From the NCBI GenBank assembly GCA_963676565.1, contig OY781089.1:1280001-1344000 (forward strand): a DNA stretch of 64,000 nt, given 5' to 3'. Positions 4,315-40,138 of this stretch are shown here, piece by piece. The position numbers were made by a program, and so were the translations under genes. The notes under the pieces were generated by a model. It had not been told where the DNA came from. It saw only the letters and a program-made list of their open reading frames with translations, and did no database searches. The DNA comes from Halarcobacter sp. Lineage in GTDB: Bacteria; Campylobacterota; Campylobacteria; Campylobacterales; Arcobacteraceae. The stretch's first letter is position 1; every line of letters starts with the position of its first letter.

Positions 4315-6132
4315 ATGAATTTAACAAAACAACAAAATGAAATAATAGAAGCAATTCCAAAATATAAAAATATAAAAATTAATGCCTTTGCAGGAACTGG
4401 TAAAACAACAACTTTAAAACTTATTGCAAATAAATATAAAGAAAAAAAGATTTTATATTTGGCATTTAATTCAAGTATTAAAAATGAAGCTAGTAAAATC
4501 TTTCCATCAAATAGTTATGTTAAAACTACCCATGGCTTAGCATATTCTGCAGTGAGTAAATATACAGATATAGACTTATCCACATTAGTAAATTATAGAG
4601 CAATTGATATTTCAAAAGAGTTTAAAATAAACTACAATCAAGCAATTAGTGCCTTAAAGATATTTGAGAACTTTTGTAATAACAAACATGATACCATTGA
4701 AAAAGATGATATTGAACATAAAACTGCAAAAAAGATGTTTGATAATATGTTGCTTGGTATTATGAAGCCAAGTCATAGTTTTTATTTAAAATATTATTAC
4801 TTATTGCTGAAAAATGAGCAGATTCCTCAATTTCAATATGATATTTTAATGTTAGATGAAGCCCAAGATACAAATGAAGTAACATTAGGAATTTTTGAAA
4901 ACCTTTATGCAAAAACAAAAATTTTTGTTGGTGATAAACATCAACAAATTTACTCATTTAGAGGTAGTAAAAATGCCCTTGAAAAAATAGATTGTGATGT
5001 AGAGTTTTATTTATCAACAAGTTTTAGGTTTAATGAATCAATTTGTGAATATGCAAATACTCTTTTAGATAATTTCAAAGGTGAAGAGGTAAAAATAGAT
5101 TCAATTGGTGATAATACAGATATTAATATAAAATCAAGTGGATATATTTCAAGAACAAATGCTTCTTTAATTTCAATAATTGCAAAAAGAATTGAAACAA
5201 GAAAACCCTTTGTAACAGTAAGAAACCCAGAGGAAATTTTTAACCTTACAATTGAAGTTTATTATTTTTTGAATAACGATTCTAATTCAATAAAAAGGAA
5301 TAGATTTTTAAAAGATTTTTCAAGTGAAGATGATTTGAGTGATTATGCTAAAGAGGCTGAAGATTTTGAATTAAAAGCTGCTATAAAGGTTGCAAAGGAA
5401 TATAAAGAAAATATTTTTCATTTTAAAGATATTGCAACAAAGTTTTATAAAGCCTGGCAAAACAAAGAGTTAAATGGTTTTGAAAAAAGAGTAGAGGAGA
5501 TTTTATTTTTAACTACAGCTCATACAAGTAAAGGTCTAGAATGGGATAAAGTGTTTATTGCAGATGATTTTAATGATTTTGCTGATTTAATTTTAGATAT
5601 GGGATTTACTTCATTAGAAGAGTTTAAAAAAGAGCAAAAGAAAAATTCAAAGTTGGAACTTCTTGACGAATTTAATCTCTTTTATGTAGCAATTACAAGG
5701 GCAAGAAAAGTTTTAGTAAAAGATAGTGAAAACTTCCATTATCTTATGTCAAAAAATATAGAAAAATTAATTAATAGTAGAATTAGTGAATTAAATGAAA
5801 ACATTGAATCTAATTTAAAAGATAAAAAAACAAATTTCAGGAAAATGGATCAAGAAGAAAAAAATGAACTTAGAAAAGAGAAAAATTTAAAAGAGGGTAA
5901 AGCAAAAAAAAGTGGCTTTAAATGGACTCTAGAAGAGAAAATAAAAGTGAAAAGTTTATATAAAAAAGATGAAACTATAAACAATATTGCAAATAAACTT
6001 GATAGAAGTACAAGTTCTATCTTAGGTGAATTATTAAAAAGTGAAGTTATTACCAAAGATGAACAAATAAACTTATCAAAAATTATAAAAAATGGGAAAA
6101 TCGCAAAAAGAAGTGCTTTAGTATTTCTTTAA
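4315..6132 (+). CDS. UvrD-like SF1 helicase with C-terminal Myb/HTH-like domain
   Basis: AFAGTGKTT, LDEAQD, VGDKHQQIYSFRG, TAHTSKGLEWD, YVAITRA. Confidence 0.9.
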   Translation: MNLTKQQNEIIEAIPKYKNIKINAFAGTGKTTTLKLIANKYKEKKILYLAFNSSIKNEASKIFPSNSYVKTTHGLAYSAVSKYTDIDLSTLVNYRAIDISKEFKINYNQAISALKIFENFCNNKHDTIEKDDIEHKTAKKMFDNMLLGIMKPSHSFYLKYYYLLLKNEQIPQFQYDILMLDEAQDTNEVTLGIFENLYAKTKIFVGDKHQQIYSFRGSKNALEKIDCDVEFYLSTSFRFNESICEYANTLLDNFKGEEVKIDSIGDNTDINIKSSGYISRTNASLISIIAKRIETRKPFVTVRNPEEIFNLTIEVYYFLNNDSNSIKRNRFLKDFSSEDDLSDYAKEAEDFELKAAIKVAKEYKENIFHFKDIATKFYKAWQNKELNGFEKRVEEILFLTTAHTSKGLEWDKVFIADDFNDFADLILDMGFTSLEEFKKEQKKNSKLELLDEFNLFYVAITRARKVLVKDSENFHYLMSKNIEKLINSRISELNENIESNLKDKKTNFRKMDQEEKNELRKEKNLKEGKAKKSGFKWTLEEKIKVKSLYKKDETINNIANKLDRSTSSILGELLKSEVITKDEQINLSKIIKNGKIAKRSALVFL

Positions 6133-6138
6133 GGCATT

Positions 6139-6178
6139 AAAAAAGGGAAGTTGATTTCAAACCATCTTCCCTTTTTTT
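6139..6178. terminator. Bidirectional intrinsic terminator
   Basis: AAAAAAGGGAAG...CTTCCCTTTTTTT. Confidence 0.85.
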
Positions 6179-6237
6179 ATATAAATTGTAAATAAACTTT
6201 CATTTACAAATTTACTTTGTAGTAAATTATTGTTTAT

Positions 6238-6276
6238 CTAAATGTTAACAATAAAAAGTAGTGAATCGTTTGTCAT
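6238..6276 (-). CDS. Candidate 12-aa peptide MTNDSLLFIVNI within a small stand-alone transcript
   Basis: GGAGGT RBS (6281-6286), TATAAT (6306-6311, minus strand), terminator at 6139-6178. Confidence 0.45.
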   Translation of the reverse strand: MTNDSLLFIVNI

Positions 6277-6396
6277 TGACACCTCCACTAAATGTTCTTA
6301 AAAGTATTATACTCCTTTTTAAAATTAAATTTCAATTAAATTTATCTATTTTCTAAACAAATTTCAATATAATTTCAAAAAAATTAGGTTTTAGCA

Positions 6397-7173
6397 ATGA
6401 TAGATAGATTAAAAGATATAGTTAAAGAGGCTGGTGAGATACTAAAAGAAGGGTACTTTTCAACAAAAGAGATAAGTTTTAAAGCAAAAAAAGATTTAGT
6501 AACAAAATATGATGTAGGTATTGAAAATTTTTTAAAAGAAAAGTTCTCAAATGAGTTTAAAGAGTTCAATTTAATAGCAGAAGAATCAGATAATAGTGAT
6601 ATAAAGTTTAATAATTCAATAATTATAGACCCAATTGATGGTACAACTAATTTTGTAAATGGTGTGCCACACACTGCAATATCTGTTGGAGTATATAAAG
6701 ATAAAAAACCTTTTTATGGAATTGTTTATAATCCTATTTTAAATGAATTATATGAAGCCCAAGTTGAAAAAGGTGCTTTTTTAAATGGAAAGAAAATTGA
6801 AGTTTCAAAGGAAAATGATTTTCAAAAGGCTTTAATTGCAACGGGCTTTCCATATACAAGTGGAACAAATCAAGATGATTTAGATTCTGTTTTAACAATG
6901 ATGAAAAATGTTTTACCAAATTGCCAAGATATAAGAAGGTTAGGTTCAGCTTCACTTGATTTGTGTTATGTGGCAAAGGGTGTATTTGATTCTTATTATG
7001 AGATGAATTTAAAGCCTTGGGATGTAAGTGCAGGAATTATAATTTTAAGTGAAGCAGGTGGAGAGTTTACAAATGAAAAAGGTGAGCCTTATTCACTTTT
7101 TGATGATAAATATATCGTTGCTACAAATGGCTTTTTGCAAGATAAGCTAATAAGTATTTTAGAAGCAAAGTAA
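6397..7173 (+). CDS. suhB: Inositol monophosphatase family protein
   Basis: IDPIDGTTNF, RRLGSASLDL, WDVSAG. Confidence 0.88.
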   Translation: MIDRLKDIVKEAGEILKEGYFSTKEISFKAKKDLVTKYDVGIENFLKEKFSNEFKEFNLIAEESDNSDIKFNNSIIIDPIDGTTNFVNGVPHTAISVGVYKDKKPFYGIVYNPILNELYEAQVEKGAFLNGKKIEVSKENDFQKALIATGFPYTSGTNQDDLDSVLTMMKNVLPNCQDIRRLGSASLDLCYVAKGVFDSYYEMNLKPWDVSAGIIILSEAGGEFTNEKGEPYSLFDDKYIVATNGFLQDKLISILEAK

Positions 7174-24741: not shown

Positions 24742-27702
24742 TTGAGAGAAGAAGTTCAAGAACTATTAAATGATAAAAAAACCTTACTTACAATCACTTA
24801 TTTTAAACTTCAAAAACTTTTAGAAAAAAAGTATGGGAACAATGCAGTTGTTCTTATGGAGATAGGAACATTTTTTGAAGTTTATGAAGTAAATAATGAT
24901 GAGGAACAAGTAGGAAAAGCAAAAGAGATTGCAGAACTTCTAAACATCCAGTTAACAAGAAAAAATAAATCTATTTTAGAAAACTCACAAGAAAATCCTA
25001 TTATGGCTGGAGTTCCAGCAATTTCATTTGAGAAACATTTAGCAAGAATAATTGCCGAACAAAAATATACAGTTGCAATTGTTAGACAAAAGGGACTTCC
25101 TCCAAATGTTAGTAGATATTTAGATACAGTTGTAAGTCCTGGTACAAACTTTGATTTTGTAGTTGACCAAGATGAAAACAATATCACTTCTTTAGTAATT
25201 GACCAAATAAGAGGTATCTATTTAGTTGGTTATAGTGCCATTGATGTAACAACAGGAAAGTGTTATTATAATGAAATACATGGTACTAGTGAAGATAAAT
25301 TTTATGCACTTGATGAAGTATTTAATTATATGAATATGCATAAAACCAATGAAGTAGTAATAAGCTTTGCAGATAAAAATATAAATCAAAAAGAGGTTAT
25401 TGATTACCTTGAATTAAAACTAAAAACTTTTCATATAGGAACTTTTAGACCAAAGATAAACTATCAAAATGAACTTTTTAAAAATGTATTTAGAATAGAG
25501 TCTTTATTAACAGCAATTGAACATCTTGATATGGAAAGGGTTCCCTTAAGTACAGAATCATTAGCTATTTTAATTGATTTTGTTATTGGACACGATTCAA
25601 ATATTATTCAAAAACTTTCATACCCTCAAAAACTTGATGTAAGTAGATATATCTATTTAGGAAATAATGCCTTAGAGCAATTAAATATAATAGAAACAAC
25701 CCACAATCCAAGTTTAATTAAACTGATTAATAACACTTCAACAGCTATGGGGAAAAGGCTATTAAAAGAGAGATTAACCCATCCTGTTAAAGACTCTAAA
25801 GAGATACTTAGACGATATGCCCTTTCAAAAGAGCTTTTTGATTTCCATACTCCAATTGAAAACGAGTTAGCAAATATTTATGATATTGAAAGATTAACAA
25901 GAAGAATAAAGTTAAATAGGCTACACCCTTTTGAGTTAAACTATTTATATGATTCTCTATTAAGTATTAAAGAAGTAGTTTCTTTTATGGAAAACTATAA
26001 GTTTTTAACTCCACCTTGTAGTAGTTCTGAATTACAACTTTTTATTCAATCTATTGATTCAACATTTGATTTAGCAATTAGTGGAAAATATATGCTAAAA
26101 GATGTTGAAGGAAATATGGTTTGTGAAGGGATTAATACCCAAATTGATGAACTAAATAAAGAAAATGAAGAGCTTTATACAAAACTTGAACTTCTTCAAA
26201 ATCATATATTAGGATTTTTAAAAACAAAAGATCCAAACTATGTTGGAATAAATAGATTAGATAAAGAGGGTTTCTTTCTAACTCTAACAAAGAATAGATT
26301 TAATCTAGTAAAAGAGGAGTTATTAAACTCACATATTATTATTGATGATGAATTACATTTATTTAAAGATTTTAATATAAAAATTCAAACAAACAATGTA
26401 AAGATTTTTTCTAAAATTAGTGAAGATGTTTCTGACAAATATGTTCATAATTTACGAAAAATAGTTGAACTAAACAAATTAGTATTTAAAGAAAAGATTT
26501 CAGAATTTGAGAAAAAGTTTGCAACACTTTTAGAAGAGTTAGTTCAATTTATTGCAGAAATTGATTTAACAGTTTCAAATATAAAAACAGCCAAAAAGTT
26601 CAACTACACTTGCCCAAAAATTGTAAAAACAAAAGATGAAGAGAACTTTTTAGAGCTTATAGACTTAAGACACCCAATTATTGAAGCAAATGAAGAACAA
26701 GGTATTTATGTACCAAATGATATTATCTTAGGTGAACTTAGCCTTGCTTCTAAAGAGTATAAAGATAATGTAATAGTAAAAAACTCAAATCCAATTAATA
26801 TGTTTAATAATAAGATGCATGGAGTTTTACTTTATGGTATTAACTCTTCAGGTAAATCATCTCTTATGAAAGCAATTGGTATCTCTGTAATTCTTGCACA
26901 AGCAGGTTTTTATGTGCCAGCAAAATCTATGAGATTTTCAATTTTTGATGCAGTTTATACTAGAATTAGTGGAGCAGATAATATTGCAAAAGGTTTATCT
27001 TCTTTTGCTGTTGAGATGTTAGAACTTAAAAATATTTTTAATAGAGCAACTAAAAACTCACTTGTATTAGGTGATGAAATCTCTCATAGTACTGAAACTA
27101 TGAGTGGTCTTTCTATTGTAGCTAGTGCTATATTGAAATTGGCAAAATTAGAATCAATTTTTGTATTTGCAACACACCTACATCAATTACCAGAAATTGA
27201 AGAGATTCAAAAGCTTAAGAATATAATAGCTCTTCATTTATCGGTTATGTATAAAGATGAAGAGGATAAATTAATCTTTGATAGAAAGTTATCATATGGG
27301 AGTGGTTCATCTATGTATGGTTTAGAATATGCGAAATCACTTCATATGGATAGAGAGTTTTTATCTGTTGCCAATGATATTAGAAAAAGACTCACTGATG
27401 ATTATAATCCACTTGAAAGATTGTCTCAGAGAAAGACCTCTAAATATAACAAAGATGTTTTTGCTGCATCATGTGTGATTTGTGGTAAAGCTTGTGATGA
27501 TGTACACCACATAAAAGAACAAGCAAGAGCAAACAAAGATGGCTTTATAGGTCATGTAAATGCAAACCATAAATACAATCTAATCCCACTTTGTAAAAAA
27601 CATCATAAGATGGTTCATGATGGAACAATAAATGTAAATGGTTTTGTTGCAACTTCGACTGGTCTTGAACTTCACTATACTATGGTAGATGAAGATAAAT
27701 AA
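24742..27702 (+). CDS. MutS-family ATPase with C-terminal HNH domain (MutS7-type)
   Basis: GTFFEVY mismatch motif, GINSSGKS, LGDE, FATH; C-terminal CVICG...VHHIKEQ...NLIPLCKKHHKMVH. Confidence 0.92.
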   Translation: MREEVQELLNDKKTLLTITYFKLQKLLEKKYGNNAVVLMEIGTFFEVYEVNNDEEQVGKAKEIAELLNIQLTRKNKSILENSQENPIMAGVPAISFEKHLARIIAEQKYTVAIVRQKGLPPNVSRYLDTVVSPGTNFDFVVDQDENNITSLVIDQIRGIYLVGYSAIDVTTGKCYYNEIHGTSEDKFYALDEVFNYMNMHKTNEVVISFADKNINQKEVIDYLELKLKTFHIGTFRPKINYQNELFKNVFRIESLLTAIEHLDMERVPLSTESLAILIDFVIGHDSNIIQKLSYPQKLDVSRYIYLGNNALEQLNIIETTHNPSLIKLINNTSTAMGKRLLKERLTHPVKDSKEILRRYALSKELFDFHTPIENELANIYDIERLTRRIKLNRLHPFELNYLYDSLLSIKEVVSFMENYKFLTPPCSSSELQLFIQSIDSTFDLAISGKYMLKDVEGNMVCEGINTQIDELNKENEELYTKLELLQNHILGFLKTKDPNYVGINRLDKEGFFLTLTKNRFNLVKEELLNSHIIIDDELHLFKDFNIKIQTNNVKIFSKISEDVSDKYVHNLRKIVELNKLVFKEKISEFEKKFATLLEELVQFIAEIDLTVSNIKTAKKFNYTCPKIVKTKDEENFLELIDLRHPIIEANEEQGIYVPNDIILGELSLASKEYKDNVIVKNSNPINMFNNKMHGVLLYGINSSGKSSLMKAIGISVILAQAGFYVPAKSMRFSIFDAVYTRISGADNIAKGLSSFAVEMLELKNIFNRATKNSLVLGDEISHSTETMSGLSIVASAILKLAKLESIFVFATHLHQLPEIEEIQKLKNIIALHLSVMYKDEEDKLIFDRKLSYGSGSSMYGLEYAKSLHMDREFLSVANDIRKRLTDDYNPLERLSQRKTSKYNKDVFAASCVICGKACDDVHHIKEQARANKDGFIGHVNANHKYNLIPLCKKHHKMVHDGTINVNGFVATSTGLELHYTMVDEDK
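27591..27702 (+). repeat. Left 112-bp direct repeat (3' end of MutS-HNH gene)
   Basis: 102/112 identical to 33203-33314 by manual alignment. Confidence 0.95.
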
Positions 27703-27866
27703 TCAAATTACTAAATTTGTACATGAATGAGGCTCTTAGTAGCTATAATTTTTAGCTCAATTTATTTATAATAAAGTTATTACATTCTAATCAAAATACA
27801 GCTATTATAATAATTGAAACTTGTACTATGTTAGTAATAAAAATATAAACCGATTGTGAGTAATTT

Positions 27867-30020
27867 ATGAGAACTTGTAAATATTTTCAAGCTAAAGGGA
27901 TTGACTATAAAGGTCAATTACAAAAAATTCCTAAAGCTAGTGTAAAACTTCAACCTTTGTATGAGGCTTTAACAAATTCAATTGAAGCAATAAAACTTTT
28001 AAAAGAAAAAAATGATGAAGCAAAAATCATTTTAAGTTTTTTCTTTATTAATAATTTATTTGGAGATGATGATTCTCTTGAATTATCAAAAATAGAACTT
28101 TTAGATTATGGAGTTGGATTTAATGATAAAGAGTTTGAAAGATTTACACAACTACATGATAATACAAAAGGATTTCATAATCAAGGTTCAGGACGTATTC
28201 AATATATGCACTTTTTTGATGAAACAAAATTTGAAAGTGTATATCAAGATGATAGTTCAGAAACAGGCTTTTTAAAAAGAATCTTTTGGTTATCAAAAAA
28301 TGATACTTTTTTAATCAATAAAGCTATAGTTTGTTTTGATGATCCAATTGCTGAACAATCTAAAGAATCCTTTACAAAGATTACATTTAAAAAATTTTTA
28401 GAGGAAGAGGATGCAAAATACTATAGTTCATTTTCTGCTGAAGAGTTAAAAGAAAAACTAATAGAACACTATTTATACTATTTTTGTGAGAATAGAAAGA
28501 ATTTACCAAAAATAGAGATTAAAACCTTTGTAGATGAAAAAATAAAAGAGTCTGCTGAAATAACACTAGATGATATTCCTTCCGAAGATAAAAGTGATAA
28601 TATTGAAATAAACTATAAAAAGCTTACAAGTGACAAAAAATTAATTACTCTAGAAGATGAAACTGAGACTTTTCATATTAAAGCATTTAAACTAAATAAA
28701 GAAGTCCTGCCAAGTAATGATTTGAAACTAACAAGCAAAAAAGAAATTGTTAGAGGTAAACTTGCCAAAAAATTTGAATTAAATGTTTTAAAACCTACTG
28801 ACACAATTGATGACAACAGATATTTGTTTTTAGTTTCAAGTTCTTATATAGATAAAAGAGACTCTGACAACAGAGGTGACCTTAAACTTTATACAGATGA
28901 AGAATTTAAAGAGAACACTTCATTATTTATTGAAGATAAAATCATTTCCTTAAATGATATTCAATCAAATATTAACAATCATGTTTTAACACTTTATTCA
29001 GAAATACTAGAAAAAAAGAATGAACATAATACAGATATAGCTAAGTTACAAGAGATGTTTTTAATTGATGAGGATAATATTAAAAGTGTAAATATCAATG
29101 TTCAAGATACTGATGAGGAAATATTAAAAAAAGTATATAAACATAATGCAAAAAGAGCTGCTGAAAATGATGCCAAGCTAAAAGAGGAAATTGAAAAAAT
29201 TAATAGTGAATTAGATGAAATGAATCCATCAGATAATACTTATAGGGATGATTTAAGTAAGAAAGTCACTTTATTAGTTAAGAAGATACCTTTACAAAAT
29301 AAAAATGAACTTGCACATACTGTAGCTAAAAGAAAACTTGTACTAGATTTATTTGATAAGATTCTTGATAAGGAACTTAGTATTCAACAAGGTGATACAA
29401 GGAATATAGATGAAGAGCTTTTACACAACCTAATATTTAAGCAGTCATCAACTAATCCTGAAGAAAGTGACCTTTGGTTGGTTAATGAAGATTTTATATA
29501 CTTTAAGGGTACCTCTGAAAAGAAATTGAGTGATATTACAATTGATGGTGAAACAATTTTAAAGGATTATGATAGTTTAACTAAAGAGCAAAAAGACTTT
29601 AGAAATTCTTTAGAAGAAAATAGATATTCAAAAAAACCTGATATATTACTTTTCCCTGATGAAGGTAAATGTATTATTTTAGAGTTTAAAAATCCAAAAG
29701 TTAATATTTCTTCCCATTTACAGCAAATTCAAAACTATGCAACTTTGATATGGAATTTTTCAAAAGATAAATTTCAATTCAATACTTTCTATGGCTATTA
29801 CATTGGCGAGAAGATAAATAATTTAGATGTGAGAAGTAAATATCCAAGCTTTGTAGAGTCTTATCATTTTGATTATTTATTTAGACCAAGTGAAGTTGTT
29901 GCAGGGTTCTTTGGTAAAAGAGATGCAAATATCTATACTGAAGTTATAAAATACTCTACACTTTTAAAAAGAGCAAAACGAAGAAATGAACTTTTCATTG
30001 AAAAGTTAGGGATTAAATAA
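27867..30020 (+). CDS. GHKL (HATPase_c/MORC-like) ATPase fused to C-terminal PD-(D/E)XK nuclease
   Basis: LYEALTNSIEA (N-box), DYGVGF (G1), NQGSGR (G2), central coiled-coil-like region, KPDILLF...IILEFK. Confidence 0.8.
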   Translation: MRTCKYFQAKGIDYKGQLQKIPKASVKLQPLYEALTNSIEAIKLLKEKNDEAKIILSFFFINNLFGDDDSLELSKIELLDYGVGFNDKEFERFTQLHDNTKGFHNQGSGRIQYMHFFDETKFESVYQDDSSETGFLKRIFWLSKNDTFLINKAIVCFDDPIAEQSKESFTKITFKKFLEEEDAKYYSSFSAEELKEKLIEHYLYYFCENRKNLPKIEIKTFVDEKIKESAEITLDDIPSEDKSDNIEINYKKLTSDKKLITLEDETETFHIKAFKLNKEVLPSNDLKLTSKKEIVRGKLAKKFELNVLKPTDTIDDNRYLFLVSSSYIDKRDSDNRGDLKLYTDEEFKENTSLFIEDKIISLNDIQSNINNHVLTLYSEILEKKNEHNTDIAKLQEMFLIDEDNIKSVNINVQDTDEEILKKVYKHNAKRAAENDAKLKEEIEKINSELDEMNPSDNTYRDDLSKKVTLLVKKIPLQNKNELAHTVAKRKLVLDLFDKILDKELSIQQGDTRNIDEELLHNLIFKQSSTNPEESDLWLVNEDFIYFKGTSEKKLSDITIDGETILKDYDSLTKEQKDFRNSLEENRYSKKPDILLFPDEGKCIILEFKNPKVNISSHLQQIQNYATLIWNFSKDKFQFNTFYGYYIGEKINNLDVRSKYPSFVESYHFDYLFRPSEVVAGFFGKRDANIYTEVIKYSTLLKRAKRRNELFIEKLGIK

Positions 30021-30038
30021 AAAAGGAATGGAGATATA

Positions 30039-33000
30039 ATGTATTTAGAATCATTACAAGAAAAAGATTTATATCTTGCCTATAAAAAGACAAAATTTGA
30101 ATTATTTAATGATAATATATCTACTTCTACCGTTCAACTATTTGAATATGAAGAGAATTTAGAAGATAATATTGATAAATTATATAAGAACATAAAAGAA
30201 GAAGGATTGTTTAATATTTGTTCTTATAGTTATTATGAAATACCTAAATCATATAATGAGAAGCAATCAGAAATTCAAGATGAAGTCCATTTCTTTTCAA
30301 GTTCTCTTATTCACCATAAGGGAAATAAACAAAAAAACATAGAACTAAAATTTAGAAAAATAATTGATGCTAATATTAATTTTCATATAATATCTACATT
30401 ATGGATAGATAAAATAGGACAATACATAGATGAAAAGTTGTCTCATGATGTTTATGGTTCACGGTTAGTGAGAATTAAACCTGTAGATATTAGTTCCTGC
30501 GAATATGATTTGACAATGCAAAGTTATAATTTAGAAAGCCCAAGAATTTTTGAACCATATCAATACAAATATCAAAAATGGAGAAATAATAGTTTTAATA
30601 CAATTAGAGAATTACATAAGTCTTCTTCTGTAATTGCAGTTACTATGGATATAACATCTTTTTATCACCAGATTGATATTGAGGAGTTTATTTCAAAAGA
30701 GTTTTATGACAATTTTGGATTAAGTGATTTATTTGAAGATAATGATGAATTAAAAATTTTTCATGAAGATTTTATTGCATTATTAAAAAAATGGAATAGT
30801 TCAATAAATTCAGAGGATGGACTTCCTATTGGTATTTCAGCTTCTCCTATATTAGCAAATGCTGTAATGAAAGAATTTGATAACAATATTGAAAATAAGT
30901 TAAAACCCACTTATTATGGAAGATATGTTGATGACATTTTATTAGTCTTTCCTGATTCAGGTAACATCCGAAATGGTGAAGATGTTATAAGATATTTAAT
31001 ATCAAAAGACATAGTAAAAAGAGATATAAAAAAAGATCCTAATAGTATCTTTTATAAAAAGTTCACTTTCAAAAAAAATAAACAAAAGATTTTTTATTTA
31101 GATAGAAACTCTGATTTAAGTATTATAGATGCAATTGAAAGTGAAATTAATTCTATATCAAGTGAATGGCGATTTATGCCTGATTTAGTTGATGACAACT
31201 CAACTTTTCTACAGAAAATTATAGGATTTTATGCTGATGGGAATGAGTTTAATGATGCTTTGAGAAAAGTTGATTCTACCACTATTAAAAAGTTGGGATT
31301 GTCTTTATTAATTGGACATGCACATTCTTTAAATGAATATATATCTCCATCAGAATGGAAAAATAAAAGACATGAAATATATGATTTAATAGAAAACCAT
31401 ATATTTATTCCAAGTAATTTTTTTAATAATTATATGTTTATAAGTAGAATCTTTAAACTAATGATTCATAGTGGAGATGGAGAAAGGGCTTATTGCTTTT
31501 TAGAAAAGACTATATCTATTATTGATTCATTTAGAGAAATCTCTTCTAAAAATTGTATAGCTTCAAATGGTAAAGATGTTGAGTTTTATAGATTTGAAAA
31601 ATATCATTATTCTCTACTGCAACAAGTGTTTCTAGAAACTTGTAATATATTGTCTAATATCAAAAAAAGGCATCTTTTAAAGATAATTAATACTTTATTT
31701 AATCAAGAAGTCTTTTGCGATTATTCTAATGTACTGATAACTTTCTATAATAGGGTTATGACTAAAGAAGTTGATAAAGAAGGTTTAATAAGTTTTGATA
31801 ATTTACATATACCTGCAACTGAAATAAATGAAGACGTAATAAAAGAAATAAATGCCCATTTATTTTTTAGGGATTTAGCTTTTAACTCTTTTTCAAGTTC
31901 TTGTACAGAATATGTTCTTACAAAAAACAATTATAATTTACTAAAAATGAATAGAAAGTTTTTATATAATAGATATAAAGACAGTAACCTTGAAATTAAA
32001 CTTAGTGAAGAGGATACTTATTTACTAGTTATTGATAATTTTAAAGAAAAAATTATAGAGGGTCTTTCTAATAGTCCTTTTTTATTCCCGACAAGAGTTT
32101 TTTCTGCAAATGATATATCTATAGTAAGTTGTATGTCAGATGGGAATCAGAACTCATTATTAAAAGCTTATGTGAATTGTTTAAGAGGAAATCATAATAA
32201 TTATTTTACAGATTCTCCCTTAGATAATAACAATAAAGAAGTTCTAACAATACCATATAAGAAATTTAGTAAGAGCGACAATATAAATATTGCAATTACT
32301 AATTTTAAAGTGGATGAAAGCTTTTGGAAAAAATCAGTCATAAAAAAACCTGTTAAAAGTTTATCTAGATATTTACAATTAGAGAGAATTATAAAAGATG
32401 CAGTTAAAAAGAAACCTGACTATTTAATACTTCCAGAGTTATCTATACCACAAGAGTGGGCTTGGAGAATATCTAAAAAATTACTATCTAATGGCATATC
32501 TTTGATTACAGGGGTAGAATATATTCACTCAGAAGTAAATTCTCAGAAATATGTTCATAATCCAATAATGATGTTCTTAATTTCAGATGATATTGGATTT
32601 AAGTATATGAAATATTTTAGACAAGACAAACAAGTTGGTGCACATGGAGAATCATTTGAATTAAAAAAGATTGCAAATATTGAACTTATTGCAGATAAGC
32701 TATATAAAAAGAAATATATTTATTCTCATGGTGATTTTTTCTTCTCATGTTTAATTTGTAATGAGTTAACAGATATTGAAAATAGAATGAGACTTAGAGG
32801 TAATATTGATACTCTATTTATAGTAGAATGGAACAAAGATATAAAATCTTTTAATTCATTAGTAGAGTCGGCTTCATTAGATATTCATTCGTATATAGTA
32901 CAAGTTAATAATAGAAAATATGGAGATAGTAGAATAAGAGCACCTTTTAAAGATGATTTTAAAAGAGATATTGTACAAGTCAAGGGTGGAAAGCATGACT

Positions 33001-33152
33001 ATCTAATAGTTGGTGAAATAAATGTTAATAGTTTAAGAAATTTTCAATCACACAATATTTCACCATCAGTACCTTTTAAGCCTGTTCCTACAGGGTTTAA
33101 AATGTTAAAAGCTAGAAAAAAATGGGAAAATGAAATAAAAGAAGATTTATAA
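30039..33152 (+). CDS. Reverse transcriptase-nitrilase fusion (defence-associated RT, DRT1/UG1-like)
   Basis: RT: MDITSFYHQID, GLPIGISASPILAN, YGRYVDD; nitrilase: LILPELS (E), RQDK (K), LICNELTD (C), VQVNNRKYGDSRIRAP. Confidence 0.9.
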   Translation: MYLESLQEKDLYLAYKKTKFELFNDNISTSTVQLFEYEENLEDNIDKLYKNIKEEGLFNICSYSYYEIPKSYNEKQSEIQDEVHFFSSSLIHHKGNKQKNIELKFRKIIDANINFHIISTLWIDKIGQYIDEKLSHDVYGSRLVRIKPVDISSCEYDLTMQSYNLESPRIFEPYQYKYQKWRNNSFNTIRELHKSSSVIAVTMDITSFYHQIDIEEFISKEFYDNFGLSDLFEDNDELKIFHEDFIALLKKWNSSINSEDGLPIGISASPILANAVMKEFDNNIENKLKPTYYGRYVDDILLVFPDSGNIRNGEDVIRYLISKDIVKRDIKKDPNSIFYKKFTFKKNKQKIFYLDRNSDLSIIDAIESEINSISSEWRFMPDLVDDNSTFLQKIIGFYADGNEFNDALRKVDSTTIKKLGLSLLIGHAHSLNEYISPSEWKNKRHEIYDLIENHIFIPSNFFNNYMFISRIFKLMIHSGDGERAYCFLEKTISIIDSFREISSKNCIASNGKDVEFYRFEKYHYSLLQQVFLETCNILSNIKKRHLLKIINTLFNQEVFCDYSNVLITFYNRVMTKEVDKEGLISFDNLHIPATEINEDVIKEINAHLFFRDLAFNSFSSSCTEYVLTKNNYNLLKMNRKFLYNRYKDSNLEIKLSEEDTYLLVIDNFKEKIIEGLSNSPFLFPTRVFSANDISIVSCMSDGNQNSLLKAYVNCLRGNHNNYFTDSPLDNNNKEVLTIPYKKFSKSDNINIAITNFKVDESFWKKSVIKKPVKSLSRYLQLERIIKDAVKKKPDYLILPELSIPQEWAWRISKKLLSNGISLITGVEYIHSEVNSQKYVHNPIMMFLISDDIGFKYMKYFRQDKQVGAHGESFELKKIANIELIADKLYKKKYIYSHGDFFFSCLICNELTDIENRMRLRGNIDTLFIVEWNKDIKSFNSLVESASLDIHSYIVQVNNRKYGDSRIRAPFKDDFKRDIVQVKGGKHDYLIVGEINVNSLRNFQSHNISPSVPFKPVPTGFKMLKARKKWENEIKEDL

Positions 33153-33202
33153 GACTATTTATATTTTCAAGTAAATCTTGGAATATTCATATTATACCTT
33201 TA

Positions 33203-33314
33203 TTGTAAAAAATATCATAAGATGGTTCATGATGGAACAATAAATGTAAATGGTTTTGTTGCAACTTCGACTGGATTAGAATTACATTATACAATGGTGG
33301 ATGAAGATAAATAG
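33203..33314 (+). pseudogene. Right 112-bp direct repeat: orphan copy of the MutS-HNH 3' end
   Basis: Translates CKKYHKMVHDGTINVNGFVATSTGLELHYTMVDEDK*, no start codon context. Confidence 0.92.
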
Positions 33315-33398
33315 AATAATATTTCTACAAAAAATTTAAAAAAATCATCTTTTTAATGTTAAAATACATAAAATATTTGTAGATTAAAAGGCTATTTT

Positions 33399-33791
33399 GT
33401 GAATGAACAAATAAAACATTATGAAGATAAATTAAAATATGAAATTGATTCATATGACCTATCAGTGCTTTTAGAAAAAAAAGAAAAAGTTATTGTAATA
33501 GATGCAAGGGCGACTGAAGTTTATAATCAATCACATATTCCAACTGCTATTAGTTTTCCCCACAGAACTATGAATGAAGAAACAACAAAAGATTTAGATA
33601 AATCATTTTTATATGTAACCTATTGTGATGGCATAGGATGCAATGCTTCAACAAAAGGAGCATTAAACATGGCAAAGCTAGGGTTCAATGTAAAAGAGCT
33701 TCTAGGTGGTTTAGATTGGTGGAAAAGGGATGGTTATGAAACCTTAGGAACAAAAGGAACTGCGAAACAAAATATTCAGTGTGGATGCTAA
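33399..33791 (+). CDS. Rhodanese-like domain protein
   Basis: VIDAR, SHIPTA, YCDGIGCNAS, GGLDWW. Confidence 0.92.
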   Translation: MNEQIKHYEDKLKYEIDSYDLSVLLEKKEKVIVIDARATEVYNQSHIPTAISFPHRTMNEETTKDLDKSFLYVTYCDGIGCNASTKGALNMAKLGFNVKELLGGLDWWKRDGYETLGTKGTAKQNIQCGC

Positions 33792-33814
33792 TTAGTTTTA
33801 ATCTAATTAACATC

Positions 33815-35137
33815 CTACTCTGAAGTTACATCAGGTAGTTTTGATGCCATAAAAACTCCAGCTAATCCTACAATTGCTAGTAGTAAAATAATTCCATTTA
33901 GACCAATAATTGAACTTAAAATACCAATAAATCCACTAAATAGTAAAATAAAACCAATAACAGTATTTGAAACAGCTACATAATCTGTTCTTTTATTTCC
34001 CCCTGCAAGGTCAACTAAATAGGTTTTTCTTCCTATTCTAATACCTTGATATCCAATAGTTAAAATAAAATAGATTAAGGGCATTAACCAAATAGTTGCA
34101 AAAATATTTTCAAAAAAAGTGTCTAAAAAGAATACTAGAAATCCTAAAATAGAAGCAATAGTTGCCCCAATAATCATAGAGTTTTTACTTGATTTATCTG
34201 ATAGTTTTCCCCAAATAATTGAAGAAGAAAAATCAGCTAATCCTCCTGCAAGTATAAAAAGGCCAAGTAAGTAGTTATTTGATTCACTTTGTTGTTGGGC
34301 TAAAATTACAAAAAATGGAGCAGATAAAACAGAGCATAAAAAAAGTGCCCTTGATATTACAAAATTTCTAAAATCTTTATCTGTTTTAAGTAATTTTACT
34401 TTTTTTAGTGCAACACTAATTGCATTTCCTCCACCATCAGTTTCCCCTTCAAACTCATTTATTCTTGAATATATCAGCCCTGCTATTATCCAAAAAGCAC
34501 CAGCAGAAAATAAAATTATTCCAAAGTTTTGAGGCGAAAAAGGCTTTTCTCCAACTATTAAAAAATAGATTCCAAGACCTATTATTAAAAGTCCAGCTAA
34601 ACTTCCAGAGTATCCATTTAATACCCCTCGTCTAGTTTTAGGAATAGTTTTTCCTAAGACATCCTTTGCGGCAACTGAGCTAAGACCCCTTGCAAGTGAA
34701 AAAACAATAATTAATGCAATGATTGCAATTCCTGCATTAAGTCCTGTCATATTCCAAGCAACAATTCCAATTCCTATCATAGAAAGCGCTTGTAAAAAAG
34801 CACCACTCACCCAAACATATTTTCTAATAGGCATTTTTCTAACATAAGCAGCAATTAAAAGTTGAGGTAGAAGTGAACCTGATTCTCTAATAGGAACAAG
34901 GAAACTTATTAAAAAAAGAGGTACTGAAATTGATTCCATAATCCAAGGTATAATAACCTTCGTATTTGCAACTGAGTCTGCTAATTTATTAAAAAAGTAG
35001 CTAATTATTGTAAGAAAAAAGTTTCCAGGAACTACTTTACAAGCACTTTCATCAATTGCTTTACAAACTCTAGCATCTTCTTCATTCATCAGTTTTTCAT
35101 AAACTGATTCAGTTTTTTTTCTAATTCTTTCTTTCAT
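33815..35137 (-). CDS. MFS transporter
   Basis: About 12 hydrophobic segments, WGKLSDKS loop motif. Confidence 0.88.
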   Translation of the reverse strand: MKERIRKKTESVYEKLMNEEDARVCKAIDESACKVVPGNFFLTIISYFFNKLADSVANTKVIIPWIMESISVPLFLISFLVPIRESGSLLPQLLIAAYVRKMPIRKYVWVSGAFLQALSMIGIGIVAWNMTGLNAGIAIIALIIVFSLARGLSSVAAKDVLGKTIPKTRRGVLNGYSGSLAGLLIIGLGIYFLIVGEKPFSPQNFGIILFSAGAFWIIAGLIYSRINEFEGETDGGGNAISVALKKVKLLKTDKDFRNFVISRALFLCSVLSAPFFVILAQQQSESNNYLLGLFILAGGLADFSSSIIWGKLSDKSSKNSMIIGATIASILGFLVFFLDTFFENIFATIWLMPLIYFILTIGYQGIRIGRKTYLVDLAGGNKRTDYVAVSNTVIGFILLFSGFIGILSSIIGLNGIILLLAIVGLAGVFMASKLPDVTSE

Positions 35138-36663: not shown

Positions 36664-36793
36664 ATATAATCCTTTATTAAAAAGAAGATATTATACAAAA
36701 AAATTTCATTGCATAGAGTTAAAAGAAGATTTAAATTCTTTTTTGAGCTTTAATATAATTTTTTATATAATTTTATTTGAAAGGAATAAAAAT

Positions 36794-37225
36794 ATGTATA
36801 TATCTTTTAAAAGATATTTTTTAATATGCTTTATTGTTGTATTTACAGGATGTAGCTATCAACAGATTGATAAAAAAACAATAGTTTCTCCCAAAGTAGT
36901 AGATAAAAAGCCTAAATATAAGTTTTGTCATAATCATATAGAAATTATGAGACATGCTTCAACTTATATTTTTAATGAGTTTGAAAAAGGGTATTTTGCT
37001 CAAGAGGATGATATTGGTGCGAAGGCACAAGTTTTTTTGATTGAAAATAGATCTCCTACACCATTTTCTAAAAACATCAATGCTGCGCTGGATTCTTATA
37101 AGAAACAGTACAATTTAGCAAAAAAATATAAATGTGATTTAAACGATTTTGGAATAAACCCACTTGATAAAATCAAAGATAGAATTAAAACTATTGAAGC
37201 AAAGAAAGAAAAGGATAATAAATGA
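36794..37225 (+). CDS. Hypothetical lipoprotein
   Basis: ATG after AAGGA; lipobox FTGC. Confidence 0.75.
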   Translation: MYISFKRYFLICFIVVFTGCSYQQIDKKTIVSPKVVDKKPKYKFCHNHIEIMRHASTYIFNEFEKGYFAQEDDIGAKAQVFLIENRSPTPFSKNINAALDSYKKQYNLAKKYKCDLNDFGINPLDKIKDRIKTIEAKKEKDNK

Positions 37226-37476
37226 ATCCTTTAAAAATTTTTGCTTTTATAGTTTTTTTAGTTACTGTATCATTTGGAGAAGTTAAAGAGGTAGATAAAC
37301 TATTTGAAAAGGTTAATCATGCGTCTGATCCAAAAGAGAAAAAACAATTAATTGAAGAACTTAAAAAAAAGTTAGCTCAAGAAAATATCAAAAAACGTGA
37401 AGAGGCTGATGCTATTTTAAAAGCAAAAGAAAAGCTACCTAATAAACCCTATAAAGATATCTCTTTATCTAAATAA
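37222..37476 (+). CDS. Small secreted helical protein
   Basis: Signal peptide, RBS AAGGA, overlaps the upstream stop. Confidence 0.75.
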   Translation: MNPLKIFAFIVFLVTVSFGEVKEVDKLFEKVNHASDPKEKKQLIEELKKKLAQENIKKREEADAILKAKEKLPNKPYKDISLSK

Positions 37477-37485
37477 AGAAGCATT

Positions 37486-38130
37486 ATGAATAAAAAAATT
37501 AAAATTTTACTTTTAGAAGATGATACTATCTTAGCTCAAACAATGGTTCAAATTTTAGAGCAAGAGAACTATGATATTACCCTTGCAATTGATGGAGAAG
37601 AAGTTCTTGAATATACATATGAAAATAGATTTGATTTATATCTATTTGATATAAATGTACCATTGTTAAATGGAAAGGATGTCTTAAATTTATTAAGAGA
37701 AGCTGAGGATAACACACCAACTTTTTTTATTACAGCTTTAAGAGATACTAGATCAGTTTTGGATGGATTTAATTGTGGCTGTGATGATTATATTAAAAAG
37801 CCATTTGATATTGATGAATTATTAGCAAGAGTAAAAGCTACTTTAAAAAGAAAAAATCCAACACTTACATATAAAGATATAAGTTTTGATTTACTTGAGA
37901 ATAGAGTTTTAAAAGCAAATGAAGAGGTTCCTTTGGGAAACGTTGAAAAAGATATCTTTTCTTTACTTATAAGAAATATTGGTATGACAGTTAGTAAATC
38001 TTCTTTTTTTGATTATATGAATAAACCTAGTGAACCAGGACTTCGAGTTTTGATTAGTAAGTTAAAAAAAGTTTTAGAAATAGAGATTACAAATACAAAA
38101 GGTATAGGATATAAACTTGAAAAATTATGA
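37486..38130 (+). CDS. OmpR-family response regulator
   Basis: LLEDD, FDINVP, DDYIKKPF, winged-helix KGIGY. Confidence 0.96.
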   Translation: MNKKIKILLLEDDTILAQTMVQILEQENYDITLAIDGEEVLEYTYENRFDLYLFDINVPLLNGKDVLNLLREAEDNTPTFFITALRDTRSVLDGFNCGCDDYIKKPFDIDELLARVKATLKRKNPTLTYKDISFDLLENRVLKANEEVPLGNVEKDIFSLLIRNIGMTVSKSSFFDYMNKPSEPGLRVLISKLKKVLEIEITNTKGIGYKLEKL

Positions 38131-39148
38131 AAAAAAGTCTTTTTTTACCTCAGTTTATCTTTTCTTTATACCTTTAATGGTTTTTTCAAGTATTGTTTTA
38201 TACATGTATCATCAAGATAAGGTCAAAGATTTGAATCAAACAATTCTTTATCAAATGAAAGATTATACTTTTGATTTTAAAGGGGATACTTTTTCTTTAG
38301 ATATTGTTGAAGATAAAAAAGAGAAAGAGACTTTCAAAACATATTTTTGTGAAGAAGGACTTTGTGCATATTTTAAAACAAGCACTTCAGGACCATATCT
38401 TCTAAAAGTGATTTTTGATAAGCAAAAGTATAATGTTCTTTACAATGAGTTATTGCTTAGGATATTAAAATTTGCAATTATAGTATTTATCTTATTGTTT
38501 CTTCTATCTGTTGGTTTTGCAATGTACTCTTTAAGACCTATGAAAGAAGCTTTAACTTTATTGGAAACCTTTTTAAAAGATTTAATTCATGATTTAAATA
38601 CTCCTGCCACATCAATTTTATTAAATTCGAAACTTTTAAGAAGACGTGGAGATTTTGAAGAGATTGATAGAATAGAACTTAGTGCAAAAAGCATTGCTTC
38701 TTTATATAAAAACTTAGAATTTATTAATCCTAATAATATCACAACAGATGAAAAAGTTGATGTTTCAGAGTTAGTGAATAATAAAATAGAAATATTAAAA
38801 AAAATATATCCTAATATTAAATTTATTAACAACATAAAAAGTTTTGTTGTAGATAGCAATAAAAATGGACTTGATAGAATAATTGATAATTTATTAACAA
38901 ATGCATGTAAATACAATAAAAAAAATGGAGAAATAATTATCACAATAAAAGATAAAAAACTTATTATTGAAGATACAGGTATTGGAATTAAAAATACTAA
39001 AAAAGTTTTTGAAAGATATTATAAAGAAAACGATCGTGGATTAGGTTTAGGTTTGAGTATTGTAAAACAATTGTGTGATATTTTAAATATAAATATTTTT
39101 ATAAAAAGTGAACTTGGTAAGGGTACAAGTGTCGAATTAACTTTTTAA
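38117..39148 (+). CDS. Sensor histidine kinase
   Basis: Two TM segments, HDLNTP, NLLTNACKY, DTGIGI, GLGLGL. Confidence 0.96.
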   Translation: MKNYEKKSFFTSVYLFFIPLMVFSSIVLYMYHQDKVKDLNQTILYQMKDYTFDFKGDTFSLDIVEDKKEKETFKTYFCEEGLCAYFKTSTSGPYLLKVIFDKQKYNVLYNELLLRILKFAIIVFILLFLLSVGFAMYSLRPMKEALTLLETFLKDLIHDLNTPATSILLNSKLLRRRGDFEEIDRIELSAKSIASLYKNLEFINPNNITTDEKVDVSELVNNKIEILKKIYPNIKFINNIKSFVVDSNKNGLDRIIDNLLTNACKYNKKNGEIIITIKDKKLIIEDTGIGIKNTKKVFERYYKENDRGLGLGLSIVKQLCDILNINIFIKSELGKGTSVELTF

Positions 39149-39156
39149 AAAAAAGT

Positions 39157-39186
39157 ATACAGATTACCTATTTTGGTAATCTGTAT
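39157..39186. terminator. Terminator hairpin between convergent genes
   Basis: ATACAGATTACC...GGTAATCTGTAT flanked by A/T runs. Confidence 0.8.
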
Positions 39187-39232
39187 TTTTTATAGGGACT
39201 TAATTTTTTGTATAGGAAAGAGTGTTATGGGT

Positions 39233-39481
39233 TTAGTTGTTTTTTGTTGTTTCTACGGTTTTTAAGTTTTTGTTAACTAACTCATGTGCTTTTTTAAGAT
39301 TTTTTTTCTCAACTTGTCCAATCTCAATATCTAATTTGTCAAGCAATTTAGCTCTTTCTTCTTGATTAGTTGTATTGTTAATTTTCTCAACTAACATACT
39401 AATACCTTCTAGTCCAGTAGCTGCAAATACTGTAGTAGCAGTAACTATTAATAGTAATGCTAAATTCTTTTTTAAATTCAT
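39233..39481 (-). CDS. Small secreted helical protein
   Basis: Signal peptide ending VFA; AGGAGA RBS. Confidence 0.8.
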   Translation of the reverse strand: MNLKKNLALLLIVTATTVFAATGLEGISMLVEKINNTTNQEERAKLLDKLDIEIGQVEKKNLKKAHELVNKNLKTVETTKNN

Positions 39482-39568
39482 CTTTTTTTATCTCCTTTTA
39501 ATTTAGATGTATGGAATTATATATTTACAGTGTTAGTTAAGTGTAAGTTTATAAAAAAATCAAATTTT

Positions 39569-40138
39569 TTAGAGTTTTGCATCTGCTAAAGTAAGAGAAA
39601 ATAGAATTTTATTGTTTCTTTTTTCTAAAACTTTTTTTGCTTCTAATATGGTAGTTCCTGTTGTAATCATGTCGTCAACTAAGATTATATTTTTATTTGT
39701 AAGTTGTGTATTGAATTTTCTTTTATTTTTTTTTCTAAATTCTAGGTCATGACCTGCATATTTTACTATATTTGTTGCTATTAGTTTTGAATATAAAGGT
39801 TTGATAGCCTTTGATTTTAAATGACGTGAAAGAATTGCTGTTTGAGAAAAATCATGGCGTGTATGTTCATCTATACCTATTGAGTAAATCAATTCATCAA
39901 ATTCAAAATTTTGTGCAAATTTTTTAAATGAAAGTTTTGCCAAGATATTAAAAACTCTATCTCCATGGGAATAGTATTTTGAAGAGATTAAATCTTCGAT
40001 TTCACTAAATGAGTAAAATGAATAGTTGAAAAAATCTTTTTCAAGTTCTCTTTTATGAAAAGAGGGTGAAAGTAGATTTTCTTGACAAGATTTACAAATG
40101 ATTGATAAAGATAGGGTTTCACATAATAAACATTTCAT
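39569..40138 (-). CDS. comF: ComF family phosphoribosyltransferase-like competence protein
   Basis: CLLC...ICKSC, ILVDDMITTGTT. Confidence 0.85.
   Translation of the reverse strand: MKCLLCETLSLSIICKSCQENLLSPSFHKRELEKDFFNYSFYSFSEIEDLISSKYYSHGDRVFNILAKLSFKKFAQNFEFDELIYSIGIDEHTRHDFSQTAILSRHLKSKAIKPLYSKLIATNIVKYAGHDLEFRKKNKRKFNTQLTNKNIILVDDMITTGTTILEAKKVLEKRNNKILFSLTLADAKL

Follow-up and report, generated by a model that had tools for sequence, protein, structure and literature searches.

A probable mobile cassette of Halarcobacter sp. that joins a predicted GHKL ATPase-nuclease to a UG5-type reverse transcriptase-nitrilase, most likely two stacked defense modules

When two candidate antiphage genes make up the entire cargo of a genomic island, do they form a single system in which at least one protein depends on the other, or have two self-sufficient modules come to lie side by side? 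The question is raised by a locus in Halarcobacter sp. (Arcobacteraceae, Campylobacterota), located in a stretch of 64,000 nucleotides (nt) of contig OY781089.1 (positions 1,280,001 to 1,344,000; assembly GCA_963676565.1), hereafter the window, to which the coordinates below refer. Here, a gene for a predicted GHKL ATPase fused to a PD-(D/E)XK nuclease (gene 1, 27867-30020, 717 amino acids) is followed by a gene for a reverse transcriptase (RT) fused to a C-N hydrolase (nitrilase) domain (gene 2, 30039-33152, 1037 amino acids); both start with ATG, and all features of the island are given on the + strand. A preliminary description of the locus, made from the nucleotide sequence, took the RT for a UG1-type protein, that is, a type 1 defense-associated reverse transcriptase (DRT), and proposed that the two genes constitute a new two-component DRT subtype. 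We favor a different answer, at a probability of roughly 60%, namely, that the island is a mobile defense cassette of two genes each of which can act alone. Both genes belong to described families, and their pairing is most likely a case of stacking.

As judged from profile matches, gene 2 is a UG5-large RT-nitrilase and not a DRT type 1 RT because the PADLOC model RT_UG5-nitrilase (PDLC03780; 2023 release) matches the protein at full length (E = 1.3e-243, residues 4-1034, profile positions 19-904 of 907), the Drt1a (UG1) model covers the nitrilase end alone (residues 775-1019, E = 2.9e-30), and the catalytic residues of both domains are invariant in all 16 aligned UG5-type RTs. These residues are Y296-V297-D298-D299 in the RT domain (30924-30935), which is also recognized by Pfam RVT_1 (E = 2.4e-13), and E800 (32436-32438), K864 (32628-32630) and C907 (32757-32759) in the nitrilase domain (32403-33101), to which a RTasNitrilase match at residues 789-1021 corresponds (E = 1e-46). 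The YVDD motif and the E-K-C triad had been recognized correctly in the preliminary description. Its UG1 assignment was rejected: the RT domain and the linker have no Drt1a match, and the UG5 model covers the whole protein.

This reassignment bears on the partner that gene 2 can be expected to have. No open reading frame (ORF) of at least 20 codons for a membrane partner is found in the 50 nt between the RT stop codon and the right-hand repeat, or elsewhere in the island, as had been noted before. This absence is one of the observations behind the two-component proposal, in which the RT-nitrilase would sense infection or make a product, the GHKL-nuclease would serve as the effector or as a processor of the RT product, and at least one of the genes would depend on the other; if true, this would be the first DRT where an ATP-driven nuclease replaces the membrane partner. 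We consider the proposal unlikely, and in UG5-large RTs a membrane partner is optional: the available text of Mestre et al. (2022, PMC9226505) gives a downstream membrane protein in just 31 of 299 members, the RT-nitrilase of Escherichia coli E101 with its transmembrane partner being cited there. DRT11 of Sinorhizobium meliloti RMO17, a UG5-large RT that has no partner, is reported to protect alone, with defense lost in both RT and nitrilase mutants and with no noncoding RNA detectable (Sanchez-Nieto et al. 2026, PMC13436386, as far as available).

Gene 1 is recognized far less readily. In Pfam, NCBIfam and PADLOC, none of which includes a model specific to its family, it has weak matches only (HSDR_N, E = 7e-4; Cas4, E = 0.017), the latter being its sole match in PADLOC. 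Nevertheless, its family is well conserved and includes 103 relatives of ~700-720 amino acids, with 180 stretches in species genomes and 293 in metagenomes, and is spread over Campylobacterota, Bacteroidota, Acidobacteriota, Spirochaetota, Desulfobacterota, Lentisphaerota, candidate phyla and others. Plasmid-borne relatives show 22-29% identity only, and phage records contain no relatives. The Bergerat ATP-binding motifs (27963-28193), comprising E33 and N37 (27963-27977), D80-x-G82-x-G84 (28104-28118) and G107 and G109 (28185-28193), are kept in all 94 full-length relatives together with D592 (29640-29642) and E606-x-K608 (29682-29684 and 29688-29690) in the nuclease domain at the C terminus (29430-30017), where the invariant E541 completes an E-D-ExK pattern; the GHKL boxes and the PD..ExK motif that had been read from the single sequence are thus borne out across the family. 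In 20 family members, HSDR_N is detected in 11, HATPase_c in 8 and HATPase_c_3 in 2.

Structure prediction agrees with this domain composition, in which a middle domain and a coiled coil separate the ATPase from the nuclease. The AlphaFold model of gene 1 has a mean predicted local distance difference test (pLDDT) score of 80, and Foldseek matches residues 1 to ~450 to GHKL ATPase modules, SMCHD1 first (6mw7, E = 7e-11) and then Hsp90/TRAP1, with alignments of 400-470 columns that span the ATPase and middle modules. With an E cutoff of 0.001, Foldseek finds nothing for the C-terminal domain folded separately (pLDDT 81). In a wide fold search, its best matches are mostly PD-(D/E)XK nucleases at low Z, among them McrC (Z 4.9) and E. 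coli SduA (Z 4.8) and also Can2 and FokI, the top row being a methyltransferase (Z 5.2); such matches agree with a PD-(D/E)XK fold and cannot place the nuclease further. A sequence search of the PDB with the family profile, at E up to 1, returned nothing.

By architecture and context, gene 1 appears to be of the paraMORC3 type. Iyer, Abhiman and Aravind (2008, PMC2292703, in the available part) describe paraMORC3 as a combination of a GHKL domain, a middle domain and a domain of restriction-endonuclease fold that carries E-D-ExK; its distribution is patchy, and restriction-modification (R-M) operons are a frequent location. A comparable protein, VcSduA, in which a GHKL ATPase is joined to a PD-(D/E)xK nuclease of the DUF4263/Shedu type, is reported to protect alone, as a single-gene defense that needs both activities, E27A and K557A each abolishing defense (PMC12137116, accessible text).

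How the two genes came to be where they are can be read from their surroundings. They are indeed the sole cargo of a 5.6-kb insert bounded by a direct repeat of 111 nt with 92% identity between its copies (27591-27701 and 33203-33313). The left copy is the genuine 3' end of a mutS-HNH gene (24742-27702), which encodes a 986-residue MutS protein with a C-terminal HNH region, and the right copy is a leftover duplicate in which the last 30 residues of that protein are still encoded. The G+C content is ~0.23-0.27 within the island versus 0.28-0.35 in the flanks, which are of housekeeping character, with leuA, trk, thioredoxin and mutS genes on one side and genes for a rhodanese, a major facilitator superfamily (MFS) transporter and hisA/hisH on the other. 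The gene pair is a recent insert at the mutS-HNH end because, in two genomes of the same genus, the mutS-HNH gene (87% protein identity) is directly followed by hisA/hisH and gene 1 is absent. An integrase-borne element was considered and rejected, the island carrying gene 1 and gene 2 only and no integrase.

The position of the insert is also the starting point for an explanation outside defense, in which the genes would be, for example, a DNA-repair accessory of mutS-HNH, or else inactive passengers. Insertion at the 3' end of mutS-HNH fits this explanation, as do the possible repair roles suggested for paraMORCs outside R-M settings (PMC2292703, available text). The same two genomes have mutS-HNH without the island, though; other copies of the pair, or of each gene, lie amid R-M, BREX, DarTG, Pycsar-TIR and phage P2 hotspot genes; and the catalytic residues are all preserved, so that we give next to no credence to a role unrelated to defense.

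The mutS-HNH end (24742-27702 and 33203-35137) has the appearance of an insertion hotspot: the two same-genus genomes, where hisA lies at most ~250 nt past mutS-HNH, also lack the rhodanese (33399-33791) and MFS transporter (33815-35137) genes. A contig from run X5 joins position 27608 to 33240, as an empty site would, a weak observation from one contig with a short side of 32 letters. Another variable segment of the window lies at ~36765-39575, where the aligned regions of the same two genomes offer no counterpart to an ORF of 160 codons and to the genes of a response regulator and a histidine kinase (36743-39148).

Within the island, the layout is operon-like. The two co-oriented genes are separated by 18 nt (30021-30038, aaaaggaatggagatata) with GGAG placed 5 nt 5' of the gene 2 start codon, consistent with the ribosome-binding site noted in the preliminary description, and a simple scan of 27400-33500 detects no terminator-like site on the + strand, its single site being on the - strand, so the lack of a terminator between the genes stands as well. 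The promoter of the cassette would be expected in the spacer upstream of gene 1 (27703-27866), which is AT-rich and not conserved with the second copy of the pair (locus L093, below); a promoter scan was uninformative in such AT-rich DNA (53 sites versus 45.9 expected). No RNA family of Rfam matches 27000-34000 at E up to 0.1.

The pairing of gene 1 with a UG5 RT is not general across the two families. Among 160 gene 1 loci, 80 from genomes and 80 from metagenomes, tblastn (E up to 1e-5) places a UG5-type RT near the gene 1 relative in none of the genome loci and in a single metagenome locus; with the count restricted to loci that extend 1500 nt or more downstream, the RT is present in 0 of 68 and 1 of 55, respectively. 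No UG5 RT is present anywhere in four whole genomes that carry gene 1 relatives (0/4), and the reciprocal examination of a small sample of 12 RT-centered loci revealed no gene 1 relative (tblastn, E up to 1e-3; hidden Markov model search on 9 of the 12). The family search applied to the four genomes does detect UG5 RTs elsewhere, in 2 of 400 genomes of another class. These RTs are rare, being found in 5 of 401 genomes of the phylum, and viral contigs contain 7 full-length UG5/UG1-like RTs among 57 loci. With 1 of 160 gene 1 loci, 0 of 12 RT loci and 0 of 4 genomes, the proposal of a new two-component DRT subtype is unsupported as the leading explanation.

The RT-centered loci themselves are surrounded by a phage P2 hotspot, BrxL, DarTG, Pycsar-type TIR, Schlafen-like and R-M genes. 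In species genomes, the closest RT is that of G245 (55% identity at full length), which lies between DUF1016 on its upstream side and a truncated RhuM on its downstream side. Several further loci show the range of settings of these RTs. In G398 (L092, 9046-11892), a 948-residue UG5-large RT-nitrilase (E = 2e-229) is flanked by genes for a DegT-type aminotransferase and for polysaccharide synthesis or glycosyltransferases, with no evident defense island. A viral contig (L177, 5656-8524) carries a split, UG5-small-like form, with a 646-residue RT followed by a separate nitrilase of 307 residues, the flanking genes encoding a TIR protein of the Pycsar type and a Schlafen helicase of group 3. The two UG5-type RT matches, one in G744 (L230/L232) and one in G456 (L231/L233), are each reported with one in-frame TGA in the genome search, and the RT of G744 adjoins an MmeI-like methyltransferase interrupted by an IS66 transposase, plus a large helicase.

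The usual company of gene 1 is of another kind, namely, R-M genes of type I or III and further defense genes. Directly downstream of its relatives lies hsdR in 28 of 136 loci, and directly upstream hsdS in 28 of 128. The remaining neighbors are distributed over 169 clusters, examples being type III Res, Eco57I/MmeI-type and N6/N4 methyltransferases, AlwI, DUF1016/YhcG and Bro-N as well as TIR, DUF4062, RhuM, Fic, OLD-like ATPases and HepT. PrrC, an anticodon nuclease housed inside type I R-M operons, offers a model for what such a position might mean: gene 1 could be a portable second-line guard that fires when a phage disables its neighbor, be it HsdR, type III Res or the RT-nitrilase. The location of gene 1 between hsdS and hsdR in roughly one locus in five and, elsewhere, directly upstream of Res or the RT, in the same orientation and frequently with ORFs that overlap or nearly touch, speaks for such a role, and it has been suggested that paraMORCs work with R-M components (Iyer et al. 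2008, PMC2292703, available text). Conservation is high whatever the neighbor (mean column identity 54%), though, with no neighbor-specific signature, which is a poor fit to the binding of such different partners; many gene 1 loci have neither an R-M nor an RT neighbor; and VcSduA is reported to function when cloned alone (PMC12137116, in the accessible text). We therefore deem a guard function decidedly improbable.

Rare as it is, the pair is not unique to the window. At the metagenome locus L093, a gene 1 relative and an RT with 68% and 60% identity, respectively, to the window proteins are encoded 2 nt apart, in a setting unlike that of the window, where an anti-restriction gene (ArdA) and a gene for a Rep protein (ORF2/G2P-like) adjoin the pair (4512-6775), which suggests that the carrier is a plasmid or an integrative element. 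A contig from run X3 matches 29157-33143 with 204 differences, bridges the gene junction and then continues for ~2.7 kb unlike the window, and a second X3 contig consists of 2 kb of unlike sequence followed by a match from the exact gene 1 ATG (27867) to 29159. Run X5 contributes a 563-nt contig across the junction, and run X4 pieces of both genes. These copies in other runs are ~90-95% identical to the window, with the similarity starting at the gene 1 ATG and stopping at the RT stop codon. Additionally, four gene 1 relatives match RT relatives in the size of their longest contigs (33089, 10697, 7407 and 5621 nt). The 33089-nt case is the L093 pair itself (P0006 and P0108, identical to the L093 proteins), and the other three are putative pairs. 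None of 13 short gene 1 relatives is on a contig sized like an RT contig, in a word-based search that can miss such fragments.

The phylogenies confine the pairing to a single lineage. In the gene 1 tree, all five pair-bearing proteins belong to one clade of 11 members with a Shimodaira-Hasegawa-like approximate likelihood ratio test (SH-aLRT) support of 93 (RT P0002, also present in this tree on a branch 5.05 long, is to be disregarded), and in the RT tree, all pair-bearing RTs belong to one clade of 19 members (SH-aLRT 99). Long-contig RTs without a gene 1 match all fall outside the 19-member clade, and the sister-clade RTs on long contigs match no gene 1 relative in contig size. Co-occurrence of the two genes does not extend across their families (1 of 160 loci) and is seen within one sublineage, in different genomic settings (the window, L093, X3 and X5). 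The linkage of the pair is genuine and has persisted over ~30-45% protein divergence, an argument that keeping the genes together brings some benefit.

Does this linkage amount to dependence? Autonomy is favored because a branch within the paired gene 1 clade has a different partner, the two trees are partly discordant, no residues are specific to the pair and relatives of each gene defend alone. The branch in question (P0012; L096 and L097, 99% identical to P0012) has type III Res downstream in the place of the RT. The trees agree in part only, gene 1 P0005 grouping with P0006 and the respective RTs, P0110 and P0108, being in different subclades; and neither the RT nor gene 1 has pair-specific indels or fixed residues, all catalytic residues being kept. 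In L096 (845-7186) and L097, the gene 1 relative (59% identity) overlaps the start of the type III Res gene by 4 nt, and a DUF2130 protein and a UvrD-like helicase fragment are encoded upstream. The preliminary description had reserved the case of two stacked systems for homologs that are not adjacent elsewhere and protect independently; the homologs are adjacent elsewhere, in one small clade, and the published relatives of each do defend alone. No named system matching the pair was found.

Several observations nevertheless weigh against autonomy and are shared in large part by the two-component proposal. The gap between the genes is just 18 nt in the window and 2 nt in L093; the L093 pair, at 68% and 60% identity, is in a different setting, on a mobile element; the copies of ~90-95% identity are bounded exactly by the gene 1 ATG and the RT stop codon, as if the pair moves as an ORF-bounded unit; and the paired copies are confined to one clade in each family (SH-aLRT 93 and 99). 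Finally, in G321 (L091, 3099-15726, minus strand), a type I R-M operon holds three modules between hsdS and hsdR, namely, a 973-residue UG5-large RT-nitrilase, then a 598-residue HATPase_c_3 protein and then a Schlafen/AlbA_2-HATPase_c_4 protein. The 598-residue protein, a GHKL protein different from gene 1 with a C-terminal PD-ExK-like motif (KRPD...ELK), is a second, unrelated GHKL-nuclease beside another UG5-large RT, found in 1 of the 12 RT loci. Its arrangement is explained as easily by the tendency of type I operons to collect single-gene defense modules. Taken as a whole, these points suggest a linkage tighter and older than chance stacking would give.

Set against the two-component proposal, as opposed to mere linkage, are the overwhelmingly separate occurrence of the two families, the substitution of Res for the RT in the P0012 branch, the lack of a pair-specific signature and the partial agreement of the trees. 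A broader version seems equally doubtful to us: in this lineage, the paraMORC3-type ATPase-nuclease would be a working partner of the UG5-large RT-nitrilase, and the family as a whole would be a plug-in sited directly upstream of various large effectors (HsdR, type III Res and RT-nitrilase), acting with or guarding them. Readings other than those considered here strike us as very improbable.

The sequences themselves show the catalytic residues, the domain identities, the structure of the island and the distribution and linkage of the genes; we infer defense activity, autonomy and mechanism. Under the preferred reading of two autonomous modules, genes 1 and 2 are probably co-transcribed and would be inherited and transferred as a unit within one lineage. 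Gene 2 would act with no membrane partner and would probably follow an abortive-infection-like route, with the RT and nitrilase active sites both required, as in its published relative. Gene 1 would be a GHKL clamp dimer, driven by ATP and in control of its own C-terminal PD-(D/E)XK nuclease, and this nuclease might cut invading DNA, as proposed for VcSduA. The outcome would be layered protection, in which neither gene requires the other.

The recurrent pairing appears to be unreported so far. A GHKL-nuclease neighbor of a UG5-large RT is reported neither in the main text and supplement of PMC9226505 nor in the available part of PMC13436386; specifically, the main text of PMC9226505 contains no GHKL, HATPase, MORC, Shedu or restriction-modification, and its supplement (~4.0 million characters) no HATPase, GHKL, Hsp90 or MORC. 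The literature examined, accessible in part, likewise contained no connection of a UG5 RT to a GHKL or paraMORC protein. If the genes are simply stacked, which we hold most likely, the locus is an ordinary small defense island. Even so, the cassette is a compact natural pairing that makes a convenient test of synergy or dependence between RT-based and nuclease-based defense. In addition, the survey shows the gene 1 family as a frequent insert of type I R-M operons, where it separates the specificity gene from the restriction gene; this is relevant to the long-standing question of whether paraMORCs cooperate with R-M enzymes or simply settle next to them.

Among known systems, paraMORC3 resembles gene 1 in design. 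Both have a GHKL domain at the N terminus, its ATP-binding motifs intact, followed by a middle domain and, at the C terminus, an additional domain of restriction-endonuclease fold with E-D-ExK, and the families are alike in their patchy presence in Bacteroidota and Proteobacteria-like groups, their frequency in R-M operons and the occurrence of some stand-alone members. The Shedu type I-D protein VcSduA (PMC12137116; bioRxiv 10.1101/2023.08.10.552793; both as available) similarly unites three parts in one protein, a GHKL ATPase, a middle domain resembling a clamp and, C-terminally, a PD-(D/E)xK nuclease. Unlike in Shedu, the best nuclease match of gene 1 is HSDR_N and not DUF4263, which is detected neither in gene 1 (E up to 0.1) nor in 20 relatives (E up to 0.01), and there is no Shedu model among the PADLOC matches. 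The structural resemblance of its nuclease to E. coli SduA (Z 4.8, root-mean-square deviation 3.7, 116 residues) is no better than that to McrC or other restriction enzymes, and that to Bacillus cereus Shedu (Z 3.3-3.5) is non-discriminating. Tiamat, a GHL ATPase with a PD-(D/E)xK DNase, has the same general design and is reported to defend as a single protein, in a clade separate from the MORC and paraMORC proteins (bioRxiv 10.64898/2026.09.30.754977, accessible part).

Gene 2 resembles UG1/DRT1 in the fusion of an RT to a related nitrilase domain. With UG5-large proteins, it has in common the N-terminal RT with YVDD, the long linker, the fused C-N hydrolase with its E-K-C triad and a length of ~1000 amino acids, and, as in this group of class 3 UG/Abi RTs, its gene is located in a variable island; like DRT11, it has no membrane partner. 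Its identity to proteobacterial UG5-large members is ~30%, and its clade, comprising 19 members known mostly from short contigs so far, differs from the published UG5-large RTs in that a GHKL-nuclease gene can precede the RT.

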